DNA of 64,000 nt. Source: Opitutales bacterium. GTDB taxonomy: Bacteria > Verrucomicrobiota > Verrucomicrobiia > Opitutales > JAVBMG01. Location of the stretch: the NCBI GenBank assembly GCA_031552815.1, contig JAVBMG010000004.1, forward strand, positions 13,795 to 77,794. Reading direction: 5' to 3'. The notes below the pieces were generated by a model. That model saw only the letters and a program-made list of their open reading frames with translations. It was not told where the DNA came from and searched no databases. Both the position numbers and the translations under genes were made by a program. This document shows, piece after piece, positions 1,177 to 63,548 of the stretch; position 1 is the stretch's first letter; the number at the start of each line of letters is the position of its first letter.

Positions 1177-2190
<1,014 letters not shown>

Positions 2191-2254
2191 AAGCGGAAAT
2201 GTTTTTGTTGCCGCTTGCTGCGGTTGAAACGACTGATGCAAAACCTAGAAGACA

Positions 2255-10113: not shown

Positions 10114-10170
10114 TTTCATTCCGTTAAATCGGATTGATTCACGGAAAACCATCTGTATTAATCAATATCC

Positions 10171-11577: not shown

Positions 11578-11658
11578 ACAGGGTTCGGAGGAGAGAAGAA
11601 ACGGTTGAAACAACTATCAGCGGATTCAGTTTTAAAAACAATAAACATACAAGATGTC

Positions 11659-12471: not shown

Positions 12472-12495
12472 CAATAATTTAAACGAGAACGATTT

Positions 12496-15779: not shown

Positions 15780-16157
15780 TTAATTTTCGGTGTTGTCCAC
15801 GATCCGGTCATTAGGGAGCGGTATTCCTTCCTGAATGTCATACGCAACCGTGTTTACCCGTTTGGTTATTTCCTGTGAGAGGTTAAGCACCGAGACCGTC
15901 TCATAGTTTTCATTTTTTACCGACAGTTTTTTGGGCGGTAACATGGAACGGTGAAATTCAACAATGGCAAAATGCAATTCCTCATCGACATCCGTTATTT
16001 TTCCGATGACCTGGCGCTCGGCAACCTGGACATTTGTTTTCGGGGAGTTGTCGGGTATGGTTTCACATGAAACGGATATGAGAGAGAGATAAACAACGAA
16101 TCCGCAGGCTGTTGCTTTGCGGAATCGTGTGAATTTATCTGATTCTCCGAAAATCAT
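15780..16157 (-). CDS. Small putative lipoprotein, function unknown
   Basis: A hydrophobic leader ends in SVSC, which is lipobox-like. The start forms an ATGA overlap with the rpoD stop (16154-16157). Confidence 0.5.
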
Positions 16158-21583: not shown

Positions 21584-21618
21584 TGGACAAAATGAAGATA
21601 TTTTCCTGTCAGTATTAT

Positions 21619-31350: not shown

Positions 31351-32805
31351 TTACCAGGTGTAATAAACGATGTATTCAACCGTTTTCTCTTCGTCAGGTT
31401 TTAGGTCTACTTTCATCAGGATTTGGGACGCATTTACCGACTCATAGGGAACAGTTGAGCTTTTAATTTGCGCTTTCCGGTTGGAGCGGAGATTTTCGCG
31501 GAGTTCAACGGTAGCGGCTTCATTCTTTCTGTTTTTTAATGTAAACTCAATGGTCTCCTGAATCCAGGGTTGCGATTTGACCTTAATCAAAGAGCTGGAT
31601 GTGGTTGAATCCGAAGCAAATTCCTTGATCCGGCTTTCAGCAATGAGATCGAACGCTTTTCCTGTGTAAAACTTGATTTCCTCGTTTTTCGGTGTGTGAT
31701 TGATGTTGCTTTCGCCTACGAATTCAAGCTGAGTTCCGTTCTCGCGGTATAGTCTGATATTACCGCCGGGGAAGGGCATGCCGAGATGGTTTTCTTCCTT
31801 GTTGTTGATTTTCCGCAATATGGAAACGGTTTCGATTCTCTTTTCTTCATTCTGGTTGCGGCTATCGGAAGAGGCTGAATTGACTTCATAAACCGTATTT
31901 ACTTTTACACCGTCAGCCCGGATAAATTCTATCTGCTTTGTTTCGTTGTTCAGCAGCGTGATGGCATTGGGCAGGTTGTAATAATGGAACTCGTCAAATG
32001 CTTTCTGGGTGACGGCAAGGCGTGCGGCCATCGGTGCGTACATGATTTCACTCTTGGAGTAGTCATTTTCATCATATTGCAAACGTTGCCTTTGTTTGTT
32101 CACGTCTCCGGCAATAAAGCTGACGGTAGCATTCTCGTACGCGCGCCCGCTTGTATTCGACATGGTAATCCAGGCGGAGACGGAGCCGGTATCACTTTTC
32201 TCGGGAAGCGTGATATTGTAATCCGCTTTCCAGGACAGTCCGTAAGAGATGTAGCCGATTTCTGCATTCACCTTGGCGGTAGTATCCGATTGTAATTTCC
32301 AGCGCAGTTCCGGTTTCAGAATGTTACCGTCGTTTCCGAGATTCGGAAATAATACCTGGCCCGGTAATCCGAATTGTATTCCTTTCTCGGTCTGGATAAT
32401 GGCTTCAGAGCCGTTGTACCAGTTGCGTCCCATGACATAACCGCTACGGATAACCTTTCCGGTGATTAAAATGGGCGTATCTTTTTCCGTTGTCTGGAAA
32501 GTTAGCTCCTTGCCTTCAAATTGCTTGAGCAGAAGCCCTTCGGAAACGGGATCATTCCGATAGCTTTGTTCAAGTATGTTCAGTGATTGTTTGCCTGCCT
32601 TGTCGCGCAAAATCACGGATTCCGGCTCAAGCTGGTATGAAATGTCGTTGTAGGTTACATTGTTGATTCCCTCTTTGAGATCAAGTTCCAGCGAATTGCG
32701 GATAACCGCAAAATTGCCGTTGTAAATGGTTAATGAGGTTTGCGCATAAAGTCCGGAAGTGACCGCGGTAGCATTCAATAAGACAAAAGAAAGTAATTTT
32801 TTCAT
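31351..32805 (-). CDS. DUF4139-domain secreted protein (MuiA-like), function unknown
   Basis: The protein has a signal peptide, and the N-terminus SLTIYNGNFAVIRNSLELDLKEGINNVTYNDISYQLEPESVILRD is typical of DUF4140/DUF4139 proteins. Confidence 0.65.
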   Translation of the reverse strand: MKKLLSFVLLNATAVTSGLYAQTSLTIYNGNFAVIRNSLELDLKEGINNVTYNDISYQLEPESVILRDKAGKQSLNILEQSYRNDPVSEGLLLKQFEGKELTFQTTEKDTPILITGKVIRSGYVMGRNWYNGSEAIIQTEKGIQFGLPGQVLFPNLGNDGNILKPELRWKLQSDTTAKVNAEIGYISYGLSWKADYNITLPEKSDTGSVSAWITMSNTSGRAYENATVSFIAGDVNKQRQRLQYDENDYSKSEIMYAPMAARLAVTQKAFDEFHYYNLPNAITLLNNETKQIEFIRADGVKVNTVYEVNSASSDSRNQNEEKRIETVSILRKINNKEENHLGMPFPGGNIRLYRENGTQLEFVGESNINHTPKNEEIKFYTGKAFDLIAESRIKEFASDSTTSSSLIKVKSQPWIQETIEFTLKNRKNEAATVELRENLRSNRKAQIKSSTVPYESVNASQILMKVDLKPDEEKTVEYIVYYTW

Positions 32806-36116: not shown

Positions 36117-37571
36117 ATGAAAACAGGCTCGGTACTCTTATCTTTTATTAGCATTTCCGCGTTAACTGCGTTATCGCATGCTGAAGTTATTGATGGCATA
36201 GTGACAAAACCTCGTACAGATGTGAGCTCAGGGATATTGACCTATGAAATAACTAATGGAAGCACGTTAATTTTTGAAAATAACAATGTTATCGAAAGCG
36301 GGGGTGCTGTGTCGGTTGGCGGTGGGGTATTTGTTGCGACTCCGGATAACACCGATGGCAATGGGCAGGTGATTTTTCAAAATAATCATGTTGAGAGTTC
36401 AGGTGGGGCAATTTATAACACTGGTGGAAATGTCAGCTTAGAAAATGCGGTATTTGAAAATAACAGCGCGAACGTTTATGGAGGAGCGATAGTCAACGTG
36501 GAAGGAACGCTGACCATTCGCAATGCAATTTTCCAAAACAATCGCTCGCTCAATGCGCTGGGTGGAGCAATCTTTAGTGATGCACAGGGAGGACTCTCGA
36601 CTACTGCTGTGATTACGGATAGTAGTTTTCTCGGGAATTCAGCAACGTTTGGAGGAGCTATCTGTAGTAACCAAGCGTCTCTTTCGATATTTTCTATTAA
36701 CAAGGATGTAGTATTCGCGGGTAATACGGATAGCGCATTGGGTTTAAGGGCAAATGCGATCAGAAATGCGGATGGGGCACTCTATTTGGCAGCGAACGAT
36801 GGTCGTCAGCTTCTTTTTCGTGATCCCGTGGCGAGCTTGCCTGGTCAGTCCAATATAACCCATATTAACAGTACGGATGGAACAGTTGCTGGAAAAACAA
36901 CCGGACGGGTGACTTTTAGCGGGCAGGATTTTTCTGCGGGTAGCGTGAATGTTCAATCTGCGATAGCGGGAACCACGACGGTTTACGGTGGAACATTTGA
37001 GCTAAGGGATGCCGCAGAATATGGGGTGAACACCACGGGAACCATTGTCAGTTTAAATGATACTGCCATTCTGGCGAGTACCGCAAGCGGAAATGGGATA
37101 ACGAATATCCTGGCCACGGAGTCTTTGACGCTGGAGGAAGGTTCAAGGATTTCAATTCAGGATGCAACGACTTTGGAAATTCAAAATGCAAATGTGCAAT
37201 TTAACGGAGCTGTCTCCATAGAATTTATAATGAACGAAAATGGCACGGCCGGATTGGGTTTGTTGAATTTTGCGGGCGGAAACCTGGATCTCATGAGGTT
37301 AACTCTGATCATAGATGTTGGTTCGTTGGATTTGTCAGATGCGTTTTGGAAGAGCTCTTGGGCTACTGAAATCATTATATTGGATTCTGGGATGTTCACA
37401 AACAACTTTGCCGATATTGAAACAACCGCTACAGGCGGAGCTTTTCACACTGAAATTGATAATGGTTCCTTGAGGCTTGTTTGGGTGGCTGTTCCTGAAT
37501 CGTCCAGCTATGCCATGATCTTGGGGCTGACTTCGTTCGCAGGATTACTGGTTCGCCGGAAAAGAAAGTAA
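36117..37571 (+). CDS. Pmp-repeat (GGAI/FxxN) surface protein with a PEP-CTERM sorting signal
   Basis: The protein has a signal peptide. Repeated motifs include SGGAVSV, SGGAIYN, YGGAIVN, LGGAIFS and FGGAICS, interleaved with FENN/FQNN/FLGN. The C-terminus VPESSSYAMILGLTSFAGLLVRRKRK reads as a PEP-like motif, a TM helix and a basic tail. Confidence 0.75.
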   Translation: MKTGSVLLSFISISALTALSHAEVIDGIVTKPRTDVSSGILTYEITNGSTLIFENNNVIESGGAVSVGGGVFVATPDNTDGNGQVIFQNNHVESSGGAIYNTGGNVSLENAVFENNSANVYGGAIVNVEGTLTIRNAIFQNNRSLNALGGAIFSDAQGGLSTTAVITDSSFLGNSATFGGAICSNQASLSIFSINKDVVFAGNTDSALGLRANAIRNADGALYLAANDGRQLLFRDPVASLPGQSNITHINSTDGTVAGKTTGRVTFSGQDFSAGSVNVQSAIAGTTTVYGGTFELRDAAEYGVNTTGTIVSLNDTAILASTASGNGITNILATESLTLEEGSRISIQDATTLEIQNANVQFNGAVSIEFIMNENGTAGLGLLNFAGGNLDLMRLTLIIDVGSLDLSDAFWKSSWATEIIILDSGMFTNNFADIETTATGGAFHTEIDNGSLRLVWVAVPESSSYAMILGLTSFAGLLVRRKRK

Positions 37572-40299: not shown

Positions 40300-42189
40300 A
40301 TGTTAAATATCGGTGTAATCGGTCTGGGCGCAATGGGGCAAACCCATCTGGATGCCTACGGTAAAATTAAAAACGCCCGTGTCATTGCGGTTGCTGACAG
40401 TTCCAAGGAGTTGCTGGAGGGTAAAGCCAAGGCGCATGGTAACATCAAAGGTCAGGCACAGCATAGCTTTGATTACAGTGCCGTGAAGAAATACGAAGAT
40501 GCGGTTAAACTGATTAATGATCCGCAGGTACAGGCGGTTGATATCTGCCTGCCGACGCCAGCGCATCTGCGGTTTGCGTTGATGGCAGTCCGGGCAGGGA
40601 AGCATGTCATTCTGGAAAAACCCGTGACCCGTTATTCGGAACAGGTCTGGCAAATCATTGAGGTGGCAGGACGTCAGAACGTCATGGTCATGCCTGCCCA
40701 TTGCATGCGTTTTTGGCCGGAATGGGTCTGGCTGAAGGAAACCATAGACCGGAAAACATACGGCAAGGTTTTTTCGGCGCATTTCGAGCGATTGGCTTCA
40801 CATCCGGGTCGCGGTTATACGCTTCACGGCGAAGCCAGCGGCGGAGCCTTATTTGATGTTCATTTGCACGATACCGATTTTATTACTTACTGTTTCGGCT
40901 TACCTGAAAAAGTCTCATCCAATGGCTACAGTAAGGTAACGGATGCCATTGACCATATTTTCACGCATTATGATTTTGGCAAATATGGTCCGATGATTAC
41001 AGCGGAAGGGGCGTGGAATATGGCGGACGGCTTTCCTTTCCAGATGCGCTATCGTGTCAATTTTGAGGATGCTACCGCTCTTTTTGACATCAACGCCGAG
41101 AAAAAGCTGATGCTTTTCCAAAAGGGAATCGAACCGAAAGTGATTTCCTGTGCAAACGAGATGGGATACCTGTATGAATTGCAGTATTTTGTCGATTCGG
41201 TACTCCAGCGTAGACCATTTGAGCAGGTAACGATGCTGGATGCGGCAAATACGACGGCCATTCTCGAAGCAGAGGATATTTCGTGCCAGAAAAATGGTGA
41301 ACCGGTGACGGTAGCATACAGAAAACTGAGGCCTTTCAAAATAGGAATCATGTCGGATTCTTTCAAACTATCGCCGTTGGAGGGAATGAAGGTGTCCAAA
41401 AGCGTCGGTGCGCAGGGGATACAGATTTACGCTGTAAAGGGTGAAATTTCCCCGGAAACTTTGAATAAACCCGCCCGCCAGGCACTCAAGGATTTCATCA
41501 GCCAATGTAATCTGGAAATTGCTGCTCTCTGCGGCGATCTTGGCGGACATGGTTTCGAGCGGGCTGATGAAAATGTTGAAAAAATACACCGTTCAAAGGC
41601 CATCGTTGATCTGGCGTCCGATTTAGGGACAAAAGTGGTGACAACGCATATCGGGGTGGTTCCTTCGGACAGTCATTCGGAAATCTATCAGAACCAGCTT
41701 GCTGCGTGCCGTGAATTGGCTAACTATGCGAGTTCCAAGGGAGTGACTTTTGCCATCGAAACGGGGCCGGAAGAAGCGGTAACATTGAAATCATTCCTTG
41801 ATGATGTGGCAACTCCGGGAATCGGGGTGAATCTTGATCCGGCGAATTTTGTCATGGTCACAGGTGATGATCCCGTGAAAGCGGTATTCACCTTACGAAA
41901 CTACATTGTGCATACACACGCAAAGGACGGTATCAAGCTTGGGTCCTGTGATCCGGTAAAAGTCTATGCTGCGTTTGCTGAACATGATATTGCCGGGTTT
42001 GATTTCGGAACGCTGTTCAATGAAGTTCCCCTGGGAGAAGGTTCGGTTCGTTGGGATGAATATCTGGATGCTTTGGAAATTGTCGGTTACCGCGGATTTC
42101 TGACCATAGAACGGGAAGTCGGTGAGAATCCTGTGGCTGACATCCGGGAGGCTGTCCGGTTTTTGCAGCGGAAGATTCAAACAAAATAA
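40300..42189 (+). CDS. Fusion protein: N-terminal Gfo/Idh/MocA oxidoreductase plus C-terminal xylose-isomerase-like TIM-barrel (sugar phosphate isomerase/epimerase family)
   Basis: The N-terminal ~335 aa carry LNIGVIGLGAMGQTHLDAY, ICLPTPAHL and EKP. From about aa 345 the TIM-barrel part carries KIGIMSDSF, VVTTHIGVVP, FAIETGPE and HAKD...LGEGSV.W. Confidence 0.8.
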   Translation: MLNIGVIGLGAMGQTHLDAYGKIKNARVIAVADSSKELLEGKAKAHGNIKGQAQHSFDYSAVKKYEDAVKLINDPQVQAVDICLPTPAHLRFALMAVRAGKHVILEKPVTRYSEQVWQIIEVAGRQNVMVMPAHCMRFWPEWVWLKETIDRKTYGKVFSAHFERLASHPGRGYTLHGEASGGALFDVHLHDTDFITYCFGLPEKVSSNGYSKVTDAIDHIFTHYDFGKYGPMITAEGAWNMADGFPFQMRYRVNFEDATALFDINAEKKLMLFQKGIEPKVISCANEMGYLYELQYFVDSVLQRRPFEQVTMLDAANTTAILEAEDISCQKNGEPVTVAYRKLRPFKIGIMSDSFKLSPLEGMKVSKSVGAQGIQIYAVKGEISPETLNKPARQALKDFISQCNLEIAALCGDLGGHGFERADENVEKIHRSKAIVDLASDLGTKVVTTHIGVVPSDSHSEIYQNQLAACRELANYASSKGVTFAIETGPEEAVTLKSFLDDVATPGIGVNLDPANFVMVTGDDPVKAVFTLRNYIVHTHAKDGIKLGSCDPVKVYAAFAEHDIAGFDFGTLFNEVPLGEGSVRWDEYLDALEIVGYRGFLTIEREVGENPVADIREAVRFLQRKIQTK

Positions 42190-48756: not shown

Positions 48757-50325
48757 ATGGCTTTGACTCATTTAAGTTTTAACAACGTTGAATTCGGATA
48801 TCCGGGCATGAGTATGCCTCTGTTTAGTGGATTGACTATACAGTTTCCCGAAGAATGGACTGGTATTATCGGGCCTAATGGGGCTGGAAAGACAACGTTA
48901 TTGCGTGTGGCTTGTGGAGCGTTTGAACCATTGTCGGGCATTGTTCAACGACAGGGTAAGACGTTTTATGTTGCGCAAAGGACTGATGATATTCCTGCAT
49001 ATTTTGAAGATTTTCTTTGGTCTCCGGATGCCGCAATGATAAAGTCGCGTTTATGTATCGGTGACGATTGGTTTGAACGATGGAATACTCTCAGTCACGG
49101 CGAACGAAAACGATCGCAAATTGCCATCGCATTATGGTTTGAGCCGGATATACTTGCGCTTGACGAACCGACAAACCATATCGATACAGATGCACGTCGG
49201 TTACTTGTACAGATCTTAAAGGAATTCCACGGTACGGGATTATTGGTTAGTCATGATCGAGAACTATTGGATGAATTATGCACTCATTGCCTGATGTTGG
49301 AACCACCGGTTGCTAGACTTCGACCGGGAGGGATTACCGATGCACTTGCACAGGAGGAAATTGACTTCAGAACAGCTCAGTACGAAAGCGATACATTGCG
49401 AAGAACGGCCTTACGCTTGCGTGAAGAAGCACAGCGCAGACGGATGGCCGCAGAGCAAAAAGCGGCAGACATGCGCGGTTCAAAGCAAAAGAAAAGCTCT
49501 ATACATGACCATGACGCACGGGCAAAACGCATTCTGGCGAAAATGACAAGCAAAGATACTTATGCAGGTAAACTTGTCGGGCAGATGACGCAGCGTGCTT
49601 CATCAATTGAAGCACAGAGAGCTGAAATACCTGTTCAAAAACGTTATGAAACAGGGATTTGGATAGACAGGGCATCGTATATACCACGAGACTTTTTGCT
49701 ACGTTTGCCGGCAGGTAAACTTTTGCTTAATAAAGGGAACGATGACGACGATAGCGTGGAAAACGAATCCAGAGTATTATGCTATCCTGATCTGGTAATC
49801 GGCGGCAAAGACAGAATTGCTTTAACGGGTGCAAACGGTTTAGGCAAAAGTACGTTGATTCGGTATATACTTTCGCATTTACAAATTCCTGAAGAAAATC
49901 TGATAAATATACCTCAGGAAATAACGGCAGAGGAATCGCGTTTATTATTGGGAAGAATAAAAGAACTACCGAATGAAGATCAGGGGCGAATCATGACAAC
50001 GATCAGTCGGTTAGGCTCTCGTCCTGCACGATTATTGGAAAGCGAACAACCAAGTCCCGGTGAGATACGAAAGTTATTGCTGGCTTTAGGTATTATACGG
50101 GGTCCGCATTTCATAATAATGGACGAACCGACCAATCACATGGACTTACCTAGCATTCTTTGCCTGGAAGAGGCATTGGCTGATTGTCCATGTGCAATGC
50201 TGCTGGTAAGTCATGATAAGTCCTTCTTACAAAAGACGACAGTATTGCATTGGGAGCTGCAACCTGAAAAAGCGATTGACGGTACGATAAAAAACTCGCG
50301 GTTAGTCATAATGTCCAACCGCTGA
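48757..50325 (+). CDS. ABC-F family ATPase (two ABC domains, no TM domain)
   Basis: Walker A motifs are GPNGAGKTT and GANGLGKST. Signature motifs are LSHGERKR and PSPGEIRK. Walker B motifs are LALDEPTNH and IIMDEPTNH. A charged linker separates the two domains. Confidence 0.85.
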   Translation: MALTHLSFNNVEFGYPGMSMPLFSGLTIQFPEEWTGIIGPNGAGKTTLLRVACGAFEPLSGIVQRQGKTFYVAQRTDDIPAYFEDFLWSPDAAMIKSRLCIGDDWFERWNTLSHGERKRSQIAIALWFEPDILALDEPTNHIDTDARRLLVQILKEFHGTGLLVSHDRELLDELCTHCLMLEPPVARLRPGGITDALAQEEIDFRTAQYESDTLRRTALRLREEAQRRRMAAEQKAADMRGSKQKKSSIHDHDARAKRILAKMTSKDTYAGKLVGQMTQRASSIEAQRAEIPVQKRYETGIWIDRASYIPRDFLLRLPAGKLLLNKGNDDDDSVENESRVLCYPDLVIGGKDRIALTGANGLGKSTLIRYILSHLQIPEENLINIPQEITAEESRLLLGRIKELPNEDQGRIMTTISRLGSRPARLLESEQPSPGEIRKLLLALGIIRGPHFIIMDEPTNHMDLPSILCLEEALADCPCAMLLVSHDKSFLQKTTVLHWELQPEKAIDGTIKNSRLVIMSNR

Positions 50326-50356: not shown

Positions 50357-51433
50357 TTACTTGGTATTTATCTTATATATGCAGGTATGCTTATATTCCT
50401 CTGTCGGAGATAATAGGGTCGATGGAAAACTCACATGATTAGGACTATCCGGGAAATGTTGCGTTTCCAGAGCCAAGGATGCCCTACGATTATAGGTTTT
50501 TTCATCTTTTCCGATAATGGAACCGTCAAAAAAATTACCTCCGTAGAACTGAATTCCGGGTTCAGTTGTCCAGACTTCCAGGTAACGGCCTGATACAGGC
50601 TCATAAACTGATGCTGCAAATTCTAGGGCATCCTTTGTTTTTCTCTTCAGTATCCAGTTATGATCATACCCATGTCCATGTTTCAACTGAACGTAGTCAT
50701 TATCCACCCGCTCTCCGATAAGGGTTGGTTTTTGGAAATCCATGGGTGTATTTGTTACGGATAATAGTTCTCCTGTCGGTATCAAGACTTCATTTACAGG
50801 AGTAAATTTATCCGCATTTATCATGAGCTGGTGGTCATTGATTGTACCGTTTCCCGCTCCATGAAGATTGAAAAAAGAGTGATGGGTTAGATTCACAATC
50901 GTTTTTTTATCGGTCGTTGCATAGTGAGTCACGATAAATTCATTTTCATCATTGAGCTCATAAACCATTCTGACATTTAAGTTCCCCGGATAGCCTTCTT
51001 CTCCGTCCTTTGAAACATAAGTAAATTCCAATGTCTGGGCATTCACCTGTTTTGCGTCCCAAACAACCATGTCAAATCCCTTGTTTCCTCCATGCAGGCT
51101 ATTCGGCGTATTGTTTATCGGTAACTGGCAGGTAATCCCATCCAGCTTGAACTTACCATTTGCGATGCGGTTTCCGTAGCGTCCGATTGTCGCGCCGAGG
51201 AAACGTTCGCCTTTGAAGTGAACATACTTGTCTATATGATTATGTCCCAGGACGATATCGGTAAACTGTCCGTTTTTATCCGGCGCCCAGAATTCAACAA
51301 CCCTGGCTCCGAAATTAGTCACAGTGATCTCGATTCCATTTTTGTTTCTGAGCGAGTACAGATCCGTTAGTTTTCCGTCAACGGTTGATTGGAAATCAGA
51401 CCGTTTCATTTTCGAATACTGAAGATTTTCCAT
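50357..51433 (-). CDS. galM: Aldose 1-epimerase (galactose mutarotase family)
   Basis: The sequence has LHGGNKGFDMVVWDA, NLTHHSFFNL and LALETQHFPDSPN. Confidence 0.9.
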   Translation of the reverse strand: MENLQYSKMKRSDFQSTVDGKLTDLYSLRNKNGIEITVTNFGARVVEFWAPDKNGQFTDIVLGHNHIDKYVHFKGERFLGATIGRYGNRIANGKFKLDGITCQLPINNTPNSLHGGNKGFDMVVWDAKQVNAQTLEFTYVSKDGEEGYPGNLNVRMVYELNDENEFIVTHYATTDKKTIVNLTHHSFFNLHGAGNGTINDHQLMINADKFTPVNEVLIPTGELLSVTNTPMDFQKPTLIGERVDNDYVQLKHGHGYDHNWILKRKTKDALEFAASVYEPVSGRYLEVWTTEPGIQFYGGNFFDGSIIGKDEKTYNRRASLALETQHFPDSPNHVSFPSTLLSPTEEYKHTCIYKINTK

Positions 51434-51450
51434 AATATTCGGTGAATAAA

Positions 51451-52788
51451 TTATTTCCCGACCAACTCTTTCTGGAGTTGTTCGAGTGATTTATTCTTTG
51501 TCTCCGGTATAAGAAGAGCGAAGACAAAACTGCCAGCCGTCATGACAGCAAAGAATCCAAAGATATAGGTCGCCCAGTTCCCGTTCCTTACGAAAATAGG
51601 AAACATCCATGTCAAGGCGGCACACCAAACCCAGTGGGTCATGCTACCGAGCACTTGTCCCTTGGCACGAACACTGTTCGGGAAAATTTCCGCAATTAAT
51701 ACCCAGATAACAGCTCCGAGCGAGATGGCAAAGAAGGCAATAAACCCCATCAAACACATAAGCATGTAGTATCCTGAAATGGAATCCAGGTAATAGAATC
51801 CTCTGGCAACCAAGGCGAGTGATACCGTCATTCCAAATGCCCCAATATAGAGTAACGTTTTCCGTCCAATCTTATCAATCAAAGACATGCCGATCATGGT
51901 AAAAGTCAGATTTGTTAATCCAATGATGATCGACTGCATCATTGCCGATTCCTTGAATATTCCGGACATTTCGAATATCCGGGGAGCATAATAGAGAATT
52001 GCATTAATACCTGACAATTGATTGAAGGTCGACATCAGAAAAGCAATGAGAATGGGTTTACGGTATTCCCACTGAAACAGTTTGCTACCTTCTTTTCCAA
52101 TAGCGGCAACAGATAACGATTCTTTTATGTCCCTTACTTCATCGGCGACTTCTTCATCGCCTACTTTTGCAATTACCTCTCTTGCTTCGTTTTCTCTGCC
52201 TTTGCTGACTAACCAGCGCGGACTTTCAGGAACTGTAAATAACAAGACACAGAAGAGAAGGGCAGGGATACCTTCAACGCCTAGCATCCATTGCCAGTCA
52301 TGAGCAATACCGCTAATAAAATAGTTGGAAATAAATGCGAGCACAATACCAAGCACGATATTAAATTGAAAGAATGCGACAAATCTGCCTCTCCAATGAG
52401 AGGGTGAAATTTCGGCAATATACATAGGTCCGATAACGGAAGAAGCTCCAACGGCAAGTCCTCCGATAAAACGGAAGATCATGAATGAATGCCAATTGAT
52501 AATGGCCGCGCTTCCGATCGCAGACACAAAATATAAAAGTGCAATGAATATCAGCGATCTGAGTCTTCCGTATTTCTCTACAGGTCCACTGCAAATGAGG
52601 GCACCGATAATCGTGCCGATGAGAGCCGTTGCCATGGTAAATCCATGCCAGAAATTATCTAGATGATAGATACTCTGGATGGACTGTTCAGCCCCGGAGA
52701 TAACGGCGGTGTCGAACCCGAAGAGCAAACCGCCCAAGGAAGCGACAAACGCAATATAAAACATGAAACCTTTAATAGATTCTTTCAT
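51451..52788 (-). CDS. MFS sugar-porter-family transporter (XylE/GalP/AraE-like)
   Basis: I set the start at ATG 52788; the longer ORF would overlap the upstream gene. The sequence has GGLLFGFDTAVISGA, EKYGRLRS, PESPRWL and PETKNKSLEQL. Confidence 0.9.
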   Translation of the reverse strand: MKESIKGFMFYIAFVASLGGLLFGFDTAVISGAEQSIQSIYHLDNFWHGFTMATALIGTIIGALICSGPVEKYGRLRSLIFIALLYFVSAIGSAAIINWHSFMIFRFIGGLAVGASSVIGPMYIAEISPSHWRGRFVAFFQFNIVLGIVLAFISNYFISGIAHDWQWMLGVEGIPALLFCVLLFTVPESPRWLVSKGRENEAREVIAKVGDEEVADEVRDIKESLSVAAIGKEGSKLFQWEYRKPILIAFLMSTFNQLSGINAILYYAPRIFEMSGIFKESAMMQSIIIGLTNLTFTMIGMSLIDKIGRKTLLYIGAFGMTVSLALVARGFYYLDSISGYYMLMCLMGFIAFFAISLGAVIWVLIAEIFPNSVRAKGQVLGSMTHWVWCAALTWMFPIFVRNGNWATYIFGFFAVMTAGSFVFALLIPETKNKSLEQLQKELVGK

Positions 52789-52819
52789 TTTGATAGGAGT
52801 ATTTAGTTTGCAGTATTGG

Positions 52820-54889
52820 TTAAATTCCAAATTCGATGCGGTTAATGACATGGTCCTGGTAACATTCGTCCAGCTCAACAAAATAACCGCTCCATCCCCA
52901 TACGCGAACAATCAGATGACGGTATTGCTCGGGGTGTTTCTTTGCATCAAGTAATTTTTCTCTGCTTACGGTATTCAATTGCAATTGGTGTCCTCCAAGC
53001 ATAATGAATGTTTTCACTAACATACCGAGTTTGTTTACACTTTCTTCATTGCGGAAAACGGACTGATCAAATTCCAGTGTCAGCGGACCGCCATTGATCA
53101 CATTAACCAGATTAGGTTTGGAGAATGATTTTATCACCGATATCGGACCTTTCTGATCCATGAACAAACTGGGTGAATAATTGGCCGGTATCATTTCCCC
53201 GGCTGTACGTCCATCCGGAGTGGCACCAAGGTCATTCGCGTGAAATATGTAGTACATCGCTGTACCGGTTCCGGCACGGTAGATTCCACCACGTTCGTTG
53301 ACTTTCCCATTTAATGCATGGTCGAATGAATCCAGGAGCCTTGTACATAGCGAATCGACATAGTCGTCGTCCTGTCCCATTTTGGGTGCTTCCTTGCGGA
53401 GCAATTTTTGCAGTTCCGGTTCATTCCTGAAGTTGTTGGAAATCGCATCCATCAAGGTGCTGTAGCTGACGCGTTTTTCCTCGAAATAGTATTTTTTGAT
53501 TGCTGCCAGCGAATCTGCGGCAGTGGCAATTCCTGTTCCATGGATACCGTAGTTATTGTATTTGGAGCCAAGCGAGATATCCTTCGCATTTTTCACGGTA
53601 CCATCCATGAGCAAGGACATCATCGGTGCCGGAATGATATATGTACTTTTATGTTTTTCGCAGATAGCATCCACCCGTTTCTGAATTTCCTGTTCCACGG
53701 TCTTATAGAATGATTCATAATCAGGACATTCATTAAGCTTTGGGAAGCATTCCTTCACGCAACTGATAAGCGATACTGCATCAATGTTGGGAATATCCAG
53801 GGCGTATTTTGGTATGATAAACTCCCAACAGGCGGCTACCACGTAATTGTAGGCATCTTCCTTTGCATAGCCTTTTCGCATCAGTCCGGGGATAATGATA
53901 TCATCATTGCTGTATTGCGGAAATCCAAGGCCCTTCTTTGTGAGTTGCGAACCCAGTTGAAATATTTCATCCGGCGTATCTTTATCAACACGGATGTTTA
54001 TTTTAGGATCAATCAATTTCAGTTCGTAACTGGCTTTTAAGCACATTTTCGAGAGTTCATTGAACATATACTCTCCGTTGGTATTGCGTCCTCCGAGCAC
54101 CATGCTTTGACCATTGTCTCCTTGTTGCATGCCTGGATACAGATCGCTATCCTTATTGCACATCAGGAAGAATTCCTCAATGAGGTCAAATGCTTCATTC
54201 TCAGTCAGGGTCCCATTCATGATGTCATTCTTATAGAAAGGATAAATATACTGGTCAAAGCGTCCCAATGTATTATGATAATTGTCTGCTTCCCAAATAG
54301 AAAAATGAAGAACACGCAATAATTGCAATGCTTCTCTCAGCGTCTTGGCTCCGTCTGTTTTAATTGCCTTCAGTACGTTTGCTGTGTCTTCTTCTCCCAT
54401 GAGACGGGCATAGTTCTCATATTTCCCGATGGTTTTCTGAACGGAAATAACACAGGTAAGGGCAGCATTCAGAAAAATGGTACCTTCCTGATCCAGACTG
54501 GTATCTTTCAGCCTTTCTTCGATTTCCTTTTTACGGGCTTCCAGTCCCACTTTTATCGTAGTTTCATAATCAGCCGAAATGTTGCATACTGTGCCGCGCT
54601 CGTGAATATAATGCGTTTCTTTTATTTTATCCCATTCGTCTTTTGTGTAAATGCTGGGAATCGTGCTGACGGTTCTGGTAAAAACAATTTTTTCACCCGG
54701 AAGAATAATCGGCATTTCCGCATCAAGAAGGGTCGAAAAACAAACAGCAGATCGCATTATCGGATGCATGTTTTCCTTGAAAAAAGATTCATTGAGAGTG
54801 TCAATGCCTAGTCCTTCCGAACTCCTACGGAACTGGTGGTGTTTTTTGTCTAGGATATATTCTTTTAGGCTTTTTATTCTCTGGTTCAT
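52820..54889 (-). CDS. Glycyl-radical enzyme, PFL2 (glycerol-dehydratase/CutC-like) branch, unusually short (689 aa), substrate unknown
   Basis: The C-terminal radical motif is IVRVWGWSGYFVELD (G665, codon 52895-52897). The Cys loop is VVAACWEFIIP (C354, codon 53828-53830; E356). PFL2-like segments LRVLHFSIW and GRFDQYIYPFY are present. Confidence 0.9.
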   Translation of the reverse strand: MNQRIKSLKEYILDKKHHQFRRSSEGLGIDTLNESFFKENMHPIMRSAVCFSTLLDAEMPIILPGEKIVFTRTVSTIPSIYTKDEWDKIKETHYIHERGTVCNISADYETTIKVGLEARKKEIEERLKDTSLDQEGTIFLNAALTCVISVQKTIGKYENYARLMGEEDTANVLKAIKTDGAKTLREALQLLRVLHFSIWEADNYHNTLGRFDQYIYPFYKNDIMNGTLTENEAFDLIEEFFLMCNKDSDLYPGMQQGDNGQSMVLGGRNTNGEYMFNELSKMCLKASYELKLIDPKINIRVDKDTPDEIFQLGSQLTKKGLGFPQYSNDDIIIPGLMRKGYAKEDAYNYVVAACWEFIIPKYALDIPNIDAVSLISCVKECFPKLNECPDYESFYKTVEQEIQKRVDAICEKHKSTYIIPAPMMSLLMDGTVKNAKDISLGSKYNNYGIHGTGIATAADSLAAIKKYYFEEKRVSYSTLMDAISNNFRNEPELQKLLRKEAPKMGQDDDYVDSLCTRLLDSFDHALNGKVNERGGIYRAGTGTAMYYIFHANDLGATPDGRTAGEMIPANYSPSLFMDQKGPISVIKSFSKPNLVNVINGGPLTLEFDQSVFRNEESVNKLGMLVKTFIMLGGHQLQLNTVSREKLLDAKKHPEQYRHLIVRVWGWSGYFVELDECYQDHVINRIEFGI

Positions 54890-55644
54890 AAGACTATGGT
54901 TTTTATATTATTTTCTTGAAATACGTTGTATACACAAGGTTCTTTTTCCGTATCGAAAAGCGGTTTATATTCCTGACCGATCATGGCATATTTTGCCCCG
55001 GCTGTTTTATGATAACGTAGTATTTCAATGCGAAGCAACGACGGGGCGTCTTTTATTAATGATAGGAGATTAAGCATGTTTTCCTTTGAGTCATTGACCC
55101 CGGGGATCAATGGTATCCGGATGATAAAATCAATATTGGATGAACAGAGGTACTCCAGGTTTTTCAGAATCAACCGATTGTCCACTCCCGTATATTTTTT
55201 GTGTATTGCCGGATCGGTATGCTTCATATCCAGCATAACCAGATCAAGCATCGGTATTATCTTTTGAAATATATCCGGAGTGGCATATCCACTGGTTTCT
55301 ATTGCGGAATGTATATCCGGCTTTATCTTGCCTAGAAACTCGGCAACGAATTCCGATTGGAAAAGCGGTTCGCCGCCGGTAAGGGTTATACCTCCCTGGT
55401 TTAACTTATATATATCCTTATTCCTTAATACCTGGTGGGCGAGTTCGGTGGATGAAATCTCGTAGCCACAGATTACACGTTCATTTTTCTTTATCATAAA
55501 CTGAGGAACAGGGGAGATTCCTTCGGGATTATGACACCAGGAGCAACGTAGCGGGCATCCTTTCAGAAATATAGTTGTTCTGATTCCGGGTCCGTCATGT
55601 ATAGCAAATTCCTCTATGCTAAAAACAATGCCTTTCTTTTCCAT
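54886..55644 (-). CDS. Glycyl-radical-enzyme activating enzyme (radical SAM, PflA-like short form)
   Basis: The sequence has HDGPGIRTTIFLKGCPLRCSWCHNPE (CxxxCxxC) and GGITLTGGEPL. It has no CX2CX2CX3C ferredoxin-type insert. The stop forms an ATGA overlap with the GRE start (54886-54889). I preferred ATG 55644 over 55674. Confidence 0.9.
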   Translation of the reverse strand: MEKKGIVFSIEEFAIHDGPGIRTTIFLKGCPLRCSWCHNPEGISPVPQFMIKKNERVICGYEISSTELAHQVLRNKDIYKLNQGGITLTGGEPLFQSEFVAEFLGKIKPDIHSAIETSGYATPDIFQKIIPMLDLVMLDMKHTDPAIHKKYTGVDNRLILKNLEYLCSSNIDFIIRIPLIPGVNDSKENMLNLLSLIKDAPSLLRIEILRYHKTAGAKYAMIGQEYKPLFDTEKEPCVYNVFQENNIKTIVL

Positions 55645-55920
55645 GAAGTATTTTTGGGCAGGTACGTAACACAAATTAATTTATAAGGCTATCTTTGCAA
55701 GTTGTTTTTCGGATTCGTTCAAACGGGAGATGAAGAAACTTGCGAAGGTAGAAATAGTCATGCCAGTGGCATAAAACAGGCGTAAATACATCGAAGCAAA
55801 TTGTGTCTAGGGGAACGCTATAACACGTCAGGAATTTTAAATACAAGCTTCTGCACAATTTAGGTTTATCAACAATGAAGAATGCGTAAGGGTTTTACAG
55901 CATAAGTAAAACTATAGAGA

Positions 55921-57294
55921 TTATTTTACTCTTTGATTCGTAAATGCTACATCCATTTCTGCGCCTTTATCACCTTGTTGAAGCATCCATTTTTTCAGCT
56001 CGGATTCCATTGTCACGATTCTTTCTGCATATTGCGGATCTGCCGCAAGATTGTTTAATTCCCATGGGTCTTCCTCCAGATCATAAAATTCAATTGCCGG
56101 TCTTGTCTCAAAACGATCCACCAGATTTTTGGCTTGCGGATCAACATCGGCACTTTCCAACCAACTTGCCCAAACCTGTGTCCTATCCTTGATGTTCATC
56201 ATGTGTTTTTCGAAATATTTGGCATCAGGGGTAAGATTGAGAATGAGTTTATAGCGTTTATCCTGTATACTCCGTATCGGATAGGAGGGACCTTCGGGAA
56301 TATTATTGTGTATGCCGTATGCCCAGTTGCGATGGTCTTTCTCTTTTCCGTACAAAACCTGCAGAAAACTTTTTCCGTCTATGTCTTGAATGGCTTTTCC
56401 TCCGGCAAATTCAACCAGGGTCGGTAGAATGTCTTCATATTGGACAAGGGCATCGGATCGGGAACCTGCCGTTATCGCTTTGGGATAGCGAGCAAGTAAT
56501 GCGCTGCTTTGTCCGTACTTCCAGCAGGTCCATTTGCCTCCCGGAAATTGAGGACCTTGTTCACCCAGGAAAATCACAAGGGTATGGTCCAGTTTTCCGG
56601 TTTCTTCCAAGACTTTTAACACAGCGCCAACTTCGTCATCCAAGGCTCCGATTTCGGCGATGAAGTTTCGGAACAATGTCCGGGTTTCTTTGTTATCCAC
56701 AAAAGCAGGGGGCAAGACCATTTTTTCCGGATCAAATCTGCTCTGATCGCCCATGGTCCAAGGCACATGCGGATTGGTGCTGCAAACAAAAAGACAATAG
56801 GGCTGATTACTTTCTGTAATGAACTTCCTGATCCCATCCGTTGTGTAATAGGCCGTAGGAGAAATACAGTTTTCTTCAAAACCGGGAATGTCTTCGAATC
56901 GATAAACCGAACGCGGTTCTGTGTGTTGTTTGCCCGTCCGTCCCACCCTGTAACCGATTTCGGGCAAATAGGAAGTGATGCTTTTTATATTGGGATATGA
57001 GTTTTTGTGATTCTGGTACGCACCGTGCCTGACCGGATACAGCCCTGTATACATGGAGGCCCGAATCGGTACGCACATGGTACAGGATGCATAATTTCCG
57101 GTAAAAAGAACACCTTCTCGGGCAATTCTGTCAATATTGGGAGTCTTTATATTTTTCCCTCCGTAACAACTCAGTTCATTGGAAGCTAAATCGTCTGCTA
57201 TGATGACAACAATATTAGGTTTTTCTGCTGCTATGACCGGCAATGGGATCAGGGGTAGTATCCAATAGGCAATCTTTATAAAATGTGTCCTCAT
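55921..57294 (-). CDS. Cys-type sulfatase (formylglycine-dependent)
   Basis: The protein has a signal peptide. The sequence shows PNIVVIIADDL and the formylglycine motif CVPIRASMYTG (CxPxR). The product is 457 aa. Confidence 0.9.
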   Translation of the reverse strand: MRTHFIKIAYWILPLIPLPVIAAEKPNIVVIIADDLASNELSCYGGKNIKTPNIDRIAREGVLFTGNYASCTMCVPIRASMYTGLYPVRHGAYQNHKNSYPNIKSITSYLPEIGYRVGRTGKQHTEPRSVYRFEDIPGFEENCISPTAYYTTDGIRKFITESNQPYCLFVCSTNPHVPWTMGDQSRFDPEKMVLPPAFVDNKETRTLFRNFIAEIGALDDEVGAVLKVLEETGKLDHTLVIFLGEQGPQFPGGKWTCWKYGQSSALLARYPKAITAGSRSDALVQYEDILPTLVEFAGGKAIQDIDGKSFLQVLYGKEKDHRNWAYGIHNNIPEGPSYPIRSIQDKRYKLILNLTPDAKYFEKHMMNIKDRTQVWASWLESADVDPQAKNLVDRFETRPAIEFYDLEEDPWELNNLAADPQYAERIVTMESELKKWMLQQGDKGAEMDVAFTNQRVK

Positions 57295-60739: not shown

Positions 60740-62068
60740 TTATAGATGACTGTTGATGATGGATTCAAGTAATTCCTGTTTACCGCTTTTGGCTTCCGGT
60801 TCGGTCTGTTGGAGTGCGATTTGTCTCAGGTCTTCCAAGGTCAATTTTCCTGCCTCAAAAGCTTTTCCCTGTTCCGAGTCGTAAGAGGAATACCGATCTT
60901 TTCGCAGTTTCCGATAATCCGAATTTTCCAGAATATCCGCTGCCACAATCAGTGCCCGGGCAAAAGCGTCCATTCCGCAGATATGAGCAATAAACAAGTC
61001 CTCGGGATCAGTAGAATTACGCCTGACTTTCGCGTCAAAATTAGTGCCACCTGTGGAGAACCCAGGCCCTTCCAGCAACACCAACCATGCATTGACGAGT
61101 TCCTGAACATTGACGGGAAATTGGTCAGTATCCCAGCCGTTTTGGTAATCTCCCCGGTTGGCATCGATGCTTCCCATCATGCCGGCATCAACGGCCACTT
61201 GCAGTTCATGCTCAAAAGTATGCCCAGCCAATGTCGCATGATTAACTTCAATGTTTAATTTGAAGTCCTTATCCAAGCCGTAGTGCCGCAGGAAACCAAT
61301 GACAGTTTCCGCATCATAATCATATTGGTGCTTTGTTGGCTCCATGGGCTTTGGCTCGATCAGGAATGTTCCTTTGAACCCGTTTTTTCGTCCATAATCG
61401 CGAGCTATGCCCAGCATCATGGCCAAATGTTCCTTCTCCCGCTGCATGTTTGTGTTGAGCAGGCTCATGTATCCTTCGCGTCCACCCCAGAACACATAGT
61501 TTTCTCCACCCAAGGCAATGGTAGCATCGATGGCGTTCTTTATTTGCAGGCCTGCGCAGGCTGTCACCGGGAAATGGGGATTGGTCGCTGCGCCGTTCAT
61601 ATAACGGGGATGGGTGAATACATTGGCGGTGCCCCATAACAATCTGATCCCGGATGCTTTTTGCTTTTCCTTGGCGTAATCGACTATCGTGTGCAGGCGT
61701 TTTTCAAATTCTTTCAGAGAGTCACCTTCTTCTACGAGGTCAACGTCGTGGAAGCAATAGAAGGGCATTCCCAATTTGGTCATGAATTCGAACGCGGCAT
61801 CCATTTTGTTTTTTGCCCGTTCAAGAGGAGAGTCGCCCTTGTTCCAATCAAGCCGGCGCGTGGCTTCACCAAAGGGATCATTGCCTCCGGCACACAGGGT
61901 ATGCCAATAGGCCATGGAAAAACGCAGATGCTCCTTTAGGGATTTTCCCATGATGACCCGGTTTTCGTCGTAATACCTGTAGGCGAGTGGATCGCGTGAT
62001 TGCGGTCCTGCATAGGTGATTTTTTTGATACTAGGAAAGTATTCCTTGGTCCCTGTGATGATATTCAT
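60740..62068 (-). CDS. xylA: Xylose isomerase (class II)
   Basis: The sequence has [30 protein letters not shown] and [16 protein letters not shown]. The product is 442 aa. Confidence 0.95.
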
Positions 62069-62072
62069 GGAA

Positions 62073-63548
62073 TTAATGGTTTGAGTTTAGAAAACGAAGC
62101 CAGCGTTCGTAGGCTTCTTCAAAAATAGGTTTTTCTTTCGGCTCCGGCTCTACTGTGGCAATTTTGCTCAATGATGCAAAGGCTTCGGCAGGGGAGGCAT
62201 AGACTCCGGTTCCCAGGCCTGCACCACGAGCTGCCCCGATGGAACCATCGGTGTCGTAAATCTCAATGCAGGTTTCCGCAGCTCCTGCCAGGGATTCGCG
62301 GAATACCGGACTCAGGAACATATTGGCGTTTCCCGCTCGGATAACTTGAATATCCATACCCATATTTCGCATAATATCCATACCGTATTTGAAGGCGAAG
62401 GCGACGCCCTCTTGGGCAGCCCGAAGCAGGTGACGTCGGTCATGGATATTGAAATTGATGTTGTGAAATGCAGCGCTGCTCTCGTTGTTGCCGAGGATGC
62501 GTTCTACTCCATTACCGAAGGGGACGACAACCACGCCTTTCGAGCCAATGGAAATTTCTCCTGCCAGTCTGTCCATGTCTCCATATGAGTCTCCCATAAT
62601 TCTCCGTAACCAGGACATGAGGCTGCCTGTGCCATTGATGCAAAGCAAAACACCCAGTCTGGGCGCCTCCGGCGAGTGATTGACATGCAGGAACGTGTTG
62701 ATTCTCGATTGCGGGTCGAAGGTAGCTTTGTCGTTTATTCCGTAAACAACACCCGAGGTTCCGGCGGTTGAGGCAATTTCTCCGAGCTGCAGCACATTAA
62801 GAGATAGGGCATTGTTAGGTTGATCTCCGGCCCGATAGGCAACCGGTATTCCCGGAGACAGTCCCAGCAGGCTTGCTGCGGATGCCGTGACATAACCTTG
62901 TTGTCCGAAAGTGGGTACCACCGTGGCCAGCATATCACGAGTGAGGTCTAATTCCCTGAGTAATTCATCGGAAATGCACTCTTGTTTGAAATCCCAGAAA
63001 ATTCCCTCGGAGAGGCCTGACTGTGTTGTGCAAATCTCTCCCGTGAGCCGCATCGCGATATAGTCCCCCGGGAGCATGATTTTGTGGATCTGTGCAAAAA
63101 CCTCCGGCTCATTTTTTCTGATCCACGCCAGCTTTGCTGCGGTAAAGTTGCCTGGGGAATTCAAGAGGTGGCTAAGGCAAAACTTCTCCCCCAGGTTTTT
63201 AAAAGCAGCATTCCCAATCGGAGCTGCCCGACTGTCGCACCAGATGATAGCCGGACGAAGCGTATGTCCGTTGCGATCAACGACGACCAGCCCGTGCATT
63301 TGGTAGGAGATTCCGATTCCCTTGATATCCTTTCCGGCAATTCCCGTTGCGTTGAGAATTGCCTGAGTGGCTTGCCGGAGACTTTCCCACCATGTTTGCG
63401 GGTCTTGCTCCGCCCATCCGACCTGTGGGGCGACAATCAGCATTTCGCGTTGAGGCTGCGAACTTGTGGCGACACATTTTCCCGTGTGAGCATCCACCAG
63501 GGAGGCTTTGACAAAAGAACTGCCGATATCGTATCCGAGTAAATACAT
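62073..63548 (-). CDS. xylB: Xylulokinase (FGGY family)
   Basis: The sequence has [28 protein letters not shown] and a C-terminal FGGY domain. It sits immediately upstream of xylA. Confidence 0.9.

Follow-up and report, generated by a model that had tools for sequence, protein, structure and literature searches.

Glycyl radical enzymes (GREs) carry out chemistry that is otherwise closed to anaerobes, and each family assigned so far has opened a pathway (choline to trimethylamine, hydroxyproline, isethionate and anhydroglucitol). The closest described systems are those of YbiW and PflD, which cleave 1,5-anhydroglucitol-6-phosphate and 1,5-anhydromannitol-6-phosphate and represent the 'GRE isomerases' of anhydroglycolysis (Ma et al., JACS 2024, summarised in PMC13450708). 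They are the only carbohydrate-acting GREs listed in a superfamily review of June 2026, both use 6-phosphates delivered by the phosphotransferase system (PTS), and whole GRE clades are still unannotated (PMC13450708). Here we analysed a 64,000-nucleotide stretch of an Opitutales genome (assembly GCA_031552815.1, contig JAVBMG010000004.1, positions 13,795 to 77,794; hereafter the window), which carries four minus-strand genes encoding an oxygen-sensitive GRE, its activating radical S-adenosylmethionine (SAM) enzyme (activase), a sugar porter of the major facilitator superfamily (MFS) and an aldose 1-epimerase (mutarotase). Together they make up a genuine GRE operon that is conserved, uncharacterised and linked to the uptake of monosaccharides, and that suggests an anaerobic step in the breakdown of plant sugars not described before. 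Sugar-acting GREs as such are already known; what is new here is the context of an MFS porter and a mutarotase, which implies an unphosphorylated reducing sugar.

YbiW and PflD resemble the window GRE in their fold, in the Cys-x-Glu (CXE) cysteine loop, in having an adjacent activase within a sugar-uptake locus and, presumably, in a carbohydrate-sized substrate; PflD also matches it in the length of the segment that follows the Cys loop and in a glycine at the position of Tyr339 of glycerol dehydratase. Both are longer (765-810 aa, as against 689 aa) and have a histidine where the window GRE has Asn103, and Arg538 is unique to the clade of the window enzyme. Their loci combine PTS uptake with genes for a fructose-6-phosphate aldolase (FSA) and GldA—in E. 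coli K-12, where we checked the loci, ybiW and pflD both lie beside fructose-6-phosphate aldolases—whereas the window operon has an MFS symporter, and neither FSA nor GldA genes lie near window-type GREs. MFS symport leaves the sugar unphosphorylated, and a mutarotase implies a free anomeric centre, which is absent from 1,5-anhydroalditols.

Two other systems share part of this setting. Glycoside hydrolase family 127 (GH127) enzymes, which recur beside window-type GREs (see below), act on hydroxyproline-linked arabinosides, so both the trans-4-hydroxy-L-proline dehydratase HypD and the window-type GRE could serve the degradation of hydroxyproline-rich glycoproteins. HypD is also found in Bacteroides and Parabacteroides (PMC6219649). 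The window GRE has no pyrroline-5-carboxylate reductase neighbour and is tied to the sugar porter and mutarotase rather than to amino-acid genes. The L-arabinose utilisation operon of Bacteroides reportedly comprises arabinofuranosidases, a sugar transporter, an aldose epimerase and araA/B/D. Window-type loci resemble it in their GH127/GH51-type arabinofuranosidases, monosaccharide transporter, mutarotase and sugar-responsive regulator, and differ in having an activase-GRE pair where that operon has isomerase, kinase and epimerase genes.

A first-pass annotation of this DNA had named no sugar among the substrates of characterised GREs. That list is no longer complete, because sugar-acting GREs in uptake loci are known (YbiW and PflD; PMC13450708), but the pairing with an MFS porter and a mutarotase is without precedent in the literature searched. 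Full-text searches returned no characterisation of this GRE family, PMC13450708 mentions neither Bacteroides nor the family, and the public annotation of the protein reads only 'pyruvate formate lyase family protein'.

Structure of the operon

The layout described in the first-pass annotation agrees with the sequence to the base (Table 1). The activase stop and the GRE start share a 4-nt ATGA overlap, gaps of 31 nt and 17 nt separate the GRE from the MFS gene and the MFS gene from the epimerase, and 276 nt lie between the stop of a sulfatase gene (55921) and the activase ATG. The end coordinate given earlier for the whole unit, 55674, arose because the mechanical list of open reading frames (ORFs) extended the activase to a TTG at that position (ORF 54886-55674). 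The same list began the MFS gene at a TTG at 52911, within the GRE gene (ORF 51451-52911), and both of these longer TTG-initiated ORFs are artefacts of the ORF rule. The arrangement suggests that the four genes are co-transcribed as one unit. A promoter and terminator scan of the operon gave a signal no better than shuffled sequences, and no Rfam element matched within or upstream of it. The leader holds an inverted repeat, with 15-nt arms that are 87% complementary and 33 nt apart, which could be an operator, a leader hairpin or a product of chance.

Domain and profile searches support the four assignments. The GRE combines a PFL-like domain (PF02901, 8.6e-93) with a Gly_radical domain (PF01228, 2.5e-21), the activase has Radical_SAM and Fer4_12 domains, the transporter matches Sugar_tr (1.4e-107) and the epimerase matches Aldose_epim (PF01263, 2.3e-87). 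The activase exceeds the cut-off of TIGR02494 (246.6 against 174.35). The porter exceeds that of TIGR00879 (353.1 against 237.8) and falls short of the XylE equivalog (364.8 against 608), its closest solved relative being E. coli XylE (1e-85); similarly, the epimerase passes PRK11055 (314.9 against 240) and falls short of galM_Leloir TIGR02636 (328 against 397.65). Activases of the eliminase type (PflC, YbiY and CutD-like) carry a ferredoxin-like insert after the CX3CX2C motif. In our alignment this Cys-rich insert for auxiliary clusters was present in PflC, YbiY and a member from Bacillota and absent from the activases of the window and of Bacteroides fragilis.

The enzyme lies outside characterised families

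The GRE has the features that define its superfamily: a ten-stranded PFL-like barrel with a C-terminal glycine-radical domain, an RVxG[FWY] loop, a catalytic cysteine and an adjacent CX3CX2C activase. Its profile scores nevertheless lie below every curated NCBIfam family cut-off. The best curated model was the PFL2/glycerol-dehydratase subfamily TIGR01774 (337.5 bits, cut-off 678.2) and the second best HypD (300 bits, cut-off 1100), followed by PflD-type PRK09983 (280, cut-off 1109), HpsG/HpfG (246-250, cut-off 1000), CutC (247, cut-off 1050), IAD (201, cut-off 1100), HPAD (167, cut-off 1150) and the pyruvate formate-lyase (PFL) model TIGR01255 (78, cut-off 994); no NCBIfam model of the IslA/IseG or benzylsuccinate-type (X-succinate) synthase families matched. 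In BLASTP comparisons the GRE shares 30% identity with E. coli PflD and 28% with YbiW. The nearest solved relatives in HMMER searches are glycerol dehydratase (1r8w, 2.3e-78), Streptococcus PflD, HypD and E. coli PflD, whereas the match to E. coli PFL structures is no better than 1e-17. More remote structures matched with partial coverage by the best stretch (IseG 5ymr, 1.8e-50; IslA 7kq3, 1e-47; the alpha subunit of benzylsuccinate synthase (BSS) 4pkc, 2.3e-38), and fold alignments to structures of the IslA, IseG and BSS types gave identities of 18-21%.

An AlphaFold model of the GRE (pLDDT 79.7, pTM 0.84) aligned about equally well with all eliminase and isomerase structures (TM-scores 0.80-0.86, identities 21-25%). 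Glycerol dehydratase 1r8w ranked first (TM-score 0.83, ~25% identity) and HypD second; low-confidence stretches of the model (251-260, 542-550, 570-587 and 657-689) include predicted parts of the active site. Because all NCBIfam cut-offs are missed and identities to known GREs are low, sequence and model place the protein as a GRE of the Cys-x-Glu (eliminase/isomerase) type outside all characterised families. The earlier claim that it is distinct from characterised GREs therefore stands.

The active-site motifs are strongly conserved: among 80 homologues of 52-100% identity, the RVWGWSGYF loop and C354-W-E356 are at least 98% conserved, as are 161 positions in all. C354 and E356 align with Cys433 and Glu435 in glycerol dehydratase, and PflD has its CVE motif at this place. 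Among GREs, a CXE motif is the mark of 1,2-eliminases and isomerases, in which the glutamate is the general base to a substrate hydroxyl (PMC13450708), and we predict C354 to be the thiyl-radical cysteine and E356 the general base.

Glycerol/1,2-propanediol dehydratase is the best match in sequence and fold and shares the Cys-x-Glu motif and one histidine (His281, retained as His205), but the contacts made there with a small substrate are lost in the window GRE. According to the HMMER alignment, with residues counted, His164 is replaced by Asn103, Ser282 by Asn206, Tyr339 by Gly260 and Tyr640 by Gly542, and Asp447 falls in an 8-residue deletion. No gap follows the Cys loop in the alignment with PflD, and the segment there has the same length. 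Conserved polar residues on the barrel strands comprise N103, H205, N206, D247, D249, Y251, Q255, Q256, D258, N259, Q261, H450, R538, N599, T604 and E606. Of these, Arg538 is invariant in the clade, the same position being Thr in PflD, Tyr in YbiW and Gln in glycerol dehydratase. These changes, in which bulky contact residues give way to small ones, are suggestive of a larger, hydrogen-bond-rich pocket that would fit a polyhydroxylated substrate.

Conservation of the link to sugar uptake

We scanned one genome per GTDB species with a sequence pattern and fetched 80 loci, in which ORFs were called and clustered; 79 were usable, drawn from Bacteroidales, Opitutales and Bacillota, and 49 of them had full 10-kb flanks. 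The scan found GRE relatives in at least 278 species, mostly Bacteroidales together with Opitutales/Verrucomicrobiota and some Bacillota. The family is thus widespread, and in three phyla it is fixed beside a gene for monosaccharide import. B. fragilis is among its carriers, and the 90%-identity cluster of the B. fragilis GRE holds 1914 sequences.

The activase is found in 72 of the 79 loci (46 of the 49 with full flanks), the MFS porter in 62 and a monosaccharide transporter of either the MFS or the ATP-binding cassette (ABC) type in 65 (45 of the 49). The epimerase, which may lie upstream or downstream of the core, is present in 33 (24 of the 49). The first-pass annotation had made its proposal depend on conservation of the association with transporter and epimerase, and that association does recur in other genomes. 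The fine arrangement recurs as well: 45 of 61 adjacent activase-GRE pairs have the 4-nt overlap, and the median gap between GRE and MFS genes is 12 nt (n=52). Loci from Bacillota have an ABC ATPase, a permease and a periplasmic sugar-binding protein (ribose/arabinose-type) in place of the MFS porter, a replacement that fits monosaccharide import as the constant need. The linkage of the GRE to uptake is not due to chance. In B. fragilis the unit consists of a hybrid two-component system (HTCS) regulator and SusC/SusD, followed by activase, GRE, MFS porter, epimerase and GH127. One Ruminococcaceae locus (L084) holds two GRE-activase pairs ~5 kb apart (2048-5206 and 9303-12076), and its second GRE (733 aa) is only 20% identical to the family member at the same locus.

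Neighbouring genes and the type of sugar

Several classes of glycosidase accompany the operon. GH127 genes occur in 21 loci, and their nearest solved relatives are β-L-arabinofuranosidases (6ex6, 1e-102; 4qjy); against the aceric-acid-hydrolase model they score 342, below the cut-off of 950. A GH51-like relative of α-L-arabinofuranosidases with an extra lectin-like domain is found in 20 loci and classical GH51 in 4. GH36-like genes (8 loci) and GH27 genes (6 loci) have α-galactosidases and β-L-arabinopyranosidases as solved relatives, and GH106 occurs in 5 loci. At least one glycosidase of the arabino/galacto type is present in 42 of the 79 loci, in 32 of them within the same-strand run of the GRE. 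The recurrent regulators are of sugar type, namely a GntR-type helix-turn-helix protein with a periplasmic-binding-like domain (24 loci) and proteins of the LacI, AraC and HTCS types. We considered the first of these as a homologue of Bacillus subtilis AraR and rejected the idea: the domain architecture is alike, but solved AraR gave no sequence match, and the regulator therefore cannot name L-arabinose as inducer.

It had been suggested that the substrate is released by the flanking sulfatase, GH2, GH92 and GH43 enzymes; these neighbours are not conserved among the 79 loci (sulfatase in 4, GH43 in a single locus apart from that of the window, neither GH2 nor GH92 in any), and we rejected sulfatase, GH2 and GH92 as the source of the substrate. 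A link to carrageenan or 3,6-anhydrogalactose, prompted by GH127 and sulfatase, was likewise dropped, as the GH127 proteins are nearest to β-L-arabinofuranosidases and sulfatases are rare. The window sulfatase itself (family S1) has a signal peptide and a CVPIR formylglycine motif. A sulfatase with which it shares 69% identity lies close to the GRE cluster of a Bacteroidales metagenome-assembled genome from termite gut (L027), and the gene may have travelled together with the operon.

Genes for further conversion of a product were sought in a Pfam census of 152 further neighbour families, which contained no recurrent kinase, aldolase, dehydrogenase (including aldehyde dehydrogenase) or microcompartment shell gene. 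PTS and FSA genes were found in none of the 79 loci, and araA lies near only one. As no downstream enzymes recur, the module appears to hand its product to pathways encoded elsewhere. Phosphatase genes are found at some loci. An IMPase-family phosphatase (268 aa, below all equivalog cut-offs) accompanies GH127 in two gene arrangements and 10 loci (Table 1), and an MDP-1-type HAD phosphatase lies directly 3' of the GRE in L077 and L079; both recall the sugar phosphatase gene ybiV beside E. coli ybiW.

Proposed function and alternatives

We tentatively propose, with somewhat less than even confidence, that the four genes work together as a single catabolic module whose substrate is a neutral reducing monosaccharide. 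The GRE would be a C-O lyase or dehydratase of the radical type, with an arabino- or galacto-configured sugar as its substrate. The sugar is most likely L-arabinose, D-galactose or a close relative derived from plant glycans rich in arabinofuranosides. The XylE-like MFS symporter (the ABC system in Bacillota relatives) would bring in the free sugar, and the GalM-like mutarotase would equilibrate its anomers. The activase, with SAM and a single [4Fe-4S] cluster, would generate a radical on Gly665 of the GRE. At each turnover the radical would pass to Cys354, the thiyl of which would abstract hydrogen from a sugar carbon that bears a hydroxyl, and Glu356 would deprotonate the hydroxyl at the attacked carbon. 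The ketyl radical would then expel the oxygen substituent of the adjacent carbon (hydroxyl or ring/ether oxygen), and return of the hydrogen atom would give a deoxy-keto sugar or deoxy-lactone that enzymes encoded elsewhere in the genome would process further. This scheme is drawn by analogy with all Cys-x-Glu GREs (PMC13450708).

In a narrower form of the proposal, which we consider doubtful, the GRE would act on a free common aldose, abstract a ring C-H (possibly the anomeric one) and eliminate the adjacent hydroxyl, a single redox-neutral step that would yield a deoxy-keto sugar or 2-deoxy-lactone. Attack on the anomeric C-H, which leads to the 2-deoxy-lactone, would give the mutarotase a role, namely to supply the anomer whose C1-H faces the thiyl. 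Several points weigh against the module proposed above. Organisms with the operon presumably have, as a rule, ordinary arabinose and galactose pathways, which makes a common aldose somewhat odd as a substrate; more than half of the loci have no epimerase gene; and the lack of co-located downstream enzymes leaves the fate of a deoxy-keto product unexplained. The enlargement of the pocket is read from the alignment, in a region of which parts have low confidence in the model. The invariant Arg538 lies on the strand that bears substrate anchors in other GREs and could indicate an anionic substrate, and the phosphatases of the IMPase family (10 loci) and MDP-1 type (2 loci) hint at phosphorylated species.

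A costly radical enzyme in organisms with normal arabinose and galactose pathways would be explained if the substrate were an ether-modified or unusual sugar (O-methyl, anhydro or deoxy) that comes from the same glycans through the same porter. The GRE would cleave the ether C-O bond, much as YbiW and PflD open the ring ether of 1,5-anhydroalditols, and would turn a dead-end sugar into an ordinary deoxy-keto sugar; the mutarotase would serve that product or a co-imported common sugar, which agrees with its being dispensable in more than half of the loci. To our knowledge, anaerobes have no oxygenase routes for sugar ethers, which also speaks for such a substrate. The post-Cys-loop segment of PflD-like length points the same way, as does the fact that the only known sugar-acting GREs are ether-cleaving isomerases (PMC13450708). 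We nevertheless regard this alternative as unlikely, though by no means negligible: the neighbours indicate no candidate modified sugar, the GH127 proteins are nearest to plain β-L-arabinofuranosidases and miss the aceric-acid-hydrolase cut-off by a wide margin, and sugars blocked at C1 (1,5- or 1,6-anhydro) would have no use for a mutarotase. If a kinase or isomerase whose gene lies elsewhere first phosphorylated or otherwise converted the imported sugar, and the GRE acted on what results, the enzyme would be a non-PTS counterpart of the 'anhydroglycolysis' enzymes YbiW and PflD. This alternative would suit the invariant Arg538, at a position that PflD, YbiW and glycerol dehydratase fill with other residues, and the phosphatase genes near the GRE, given that ybiV adjoins ybiW in E. 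coli and that both characterised sugar GREs take 6-phosphates (PMC13450708). With no recurrent kinase among the 152 neighbour families, no FSA-type aldolase nearby such as both E. coli loci have, and a PRK09983 score far under its cut-off, we judge it improbable.

Readings that detach the enzyme from sugars fare worse. As glycerol dehydratase is the top match in both sequence and fold, the GRE has the CXE motif and a 45%-identical relative adjoins an Fe-alcohol dehydrogenase gene, the enzyme might be a diol or polyol dehydratase for a small fermentation intermediate, with the adjacency to sugar genes reflecting shared regulation only. This is highly unlikely, considering that four glycerol-contact positions are altered or deleted (His164, Tyr339, Tyr640 and Asp447), that the TIGR01774 score is about half its cut-off, that neither aldehyde or alcohol dehydrogenase genes nor microcompartment genes recur near the family, and that the transporter linkage is kept across three phyla. 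The source annotations and the Pfam PFL-like domain would make it a paralogue of pyruvate or 2-ketobutyrate formate-lyase, which is scarcely credible for a protein that has a single Cys followed by Trp-Glu in place of the Cys-Cys pair of PFL, falls far short of TIGR01255 and matches E. coli PFL structures so distantly.

If the GRE acts on a free plant sugar, the radical catabolism of carbohydrates would have a second branch, independent of the PTS, in the dominant glycan degraders of the gut and rumen, and there would be an explanation for a gene set within polysaccharide utilisation loci that annotation centred on carbohydrate-active enzymes has overlooked. With a free common aldose as substrate, it would provide a radical, ATP-independent entry of pentoses or hexoses that bypasses the isomerase-kinase-epimerase route, and would be the first GRE known to act on a free aldose, in B. 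fragilis and in hundreds of gut, rumen and termite-gut species. The compact GRE and its single-cluster activase may be easier to reconstitute than eliminase systems with auxiliary clusters, and B. fragilis is genetically tractable, which makes the question directly testable.

A wider clade of short enzymes

An exhaustive HMMER search of 1.84 billion representative sequences led us to reject a sharp boundary of the family. Short GREs (650-700 aa) grade from 61% to ~35% identity, and ordinary GREs of 750-810 aa follow at ~31-35%, a continuum rather than a gap. Genomic contexts differ along it: a 48%-identical relative still lies beside an MFS porter and a GH36-like gene; the 45%-identical one mentioned above has NagB-like, NagA-like and sialate O-acetylesterase genes nearby in addition to that for Fe-alcohol dehydrogenase; and a 40%-identical relative belongs to a biosynthetic cluster with a B12-radical-SAM enzyme, carrier proteins, adenylating enzymes and a glycosyltransferase (loci L088, L090 and L091; P0258, P0259 and P0278). 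On the basis of this continuum and the differing contexts, the operon-linked family is one sub-clade of a wider uncharacterised Cys-Trp-Glu clade, much of which is carbohydrate-associated. The core signature of the whole clade consists of N103, H205, D247/D249/Y251, D258-N259-G260-Q261, C-W-E, H450, R538, G542 and E606, and positions 204, 206, 207, 256, 357, 445, 446, 452, 543, 550 and 570 vary within it.

Table 1. Positions of the operon, its motifs and other features. Numbers refer to the window unless preceded by the label (L) of a fetched locus.
Feature	Position	Strand	Length, basis or remark
Aldose 1-epimerase (GalM-like mutarotase)	50357-51433	minus	358 aa
MFS sugar-porter-family H+ symporter, XylE-like	51451-52788	minus	445 aa from ATG
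GRE	52820-54889	minus	689 aa; uncharacterised short-GRE family, Cys-Trp-Glu loop
GRE-activating radical SAM enzyme (activase)	54886-55644	minus	252 aa from ATG at 55644; minimal form
CX3CX2C radical-SAM cluster motif of activase, Cys30/Cys34/Cys37, GCPLRCSWCHNPE	55534-55557	minus	translation; Cys columns invariant in activase alignment
Cys loop C354-W355-E356 of GRE (CXE motif)	53822-53830	minus	alignment to glycerol dehydratase and PflD
Glycyl radical motif R662-V-W-G665-W-S-G-Y-F of GRE	52880-52906	minus	sequence and Gly_radical domain
Non-coding leader 5' of activase, presumed promoter/operator	55645-55920	minus	276 nt; sequence
Inverted repeat in leader	55689-55703 / 55737-55751		15 nt
Activases compared for the insert	54886-55644; L001:9219-10004; L081:9159-10004		L081 from Bacillota
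IMPase-family gene	L001:17803-18609		also L029, L031, L032, L039, L040, L072
S1 sulfatase	55921-57294
RpoD	16154-18256		700 aa
ABC-F gene	48757-50325
GFO/IDH/MocA oxidoreductase fusion	40300-42189		629 aa
GH89 gene	23716-26202
uxaC and uxuA	10171-13665
Xylose isomerase and FGGY kinase	60740-63548
Chlam_PMP-repeat protein	36117-37571
ORF without Pfam match	31351-32805		484 aa
ORF without Pfam match	6349-7758		469 aa
ORF without Pfam match	21583-22659		358 aa

Origin of the operon and other genes of the window

The operon was likely acquired laterally from Bacteroidales by an Opitutaceae/Opitutales host. The host is identified by RpoD, which has region 1.1 and for which the named best matches are only in Opitutales, and by an ABC-F gene ending 31 nt away from the epimerase, with named best matches only in Opitutaceae (63-68%); best-match identities of the two proteins are 58-68%. 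The four operon genes, by comparison, share 73-79% identity with their homologues in Bacteroidota and only 60-64% with those in other Verrucomicrobiota. The epimerase lies downstream, as is the order in Bacteroidales, whereas in the Opitutales order it lies upstream. The operon has a GC content of 0.40-0.44, below the 0.51-0.52 that the window shows over its first 6 kb. It is these Bacteroidota-like identities, the Bacteroidales gene order and the lower GC in an Opitutales host that argue for lateral transfer; chimerism of the contig is the alternative.

Three ORFs of the window had no Pfam match at E ≤ 1e-6 (Table 1). Other carbohydrate genes in the window encode a GH89 α-N-acetylglucosaminidase and UxaC and UxuA of hexuronate catabolism, and genes for xylose isomerase and an FGGY kinase lie 5 kb upstream of the operon. 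The window also encodes a protein with Chlam_PMP repeats, as is typical of the PVC group. One gene specifies an unusual fusion of a GFO/IDH/MocA oxidoreductase to a xylose-isomerase-like TIM barrel (AP_endonuc_2), two domain types that often occur in pathways of sugar oxidation or isomerisation.

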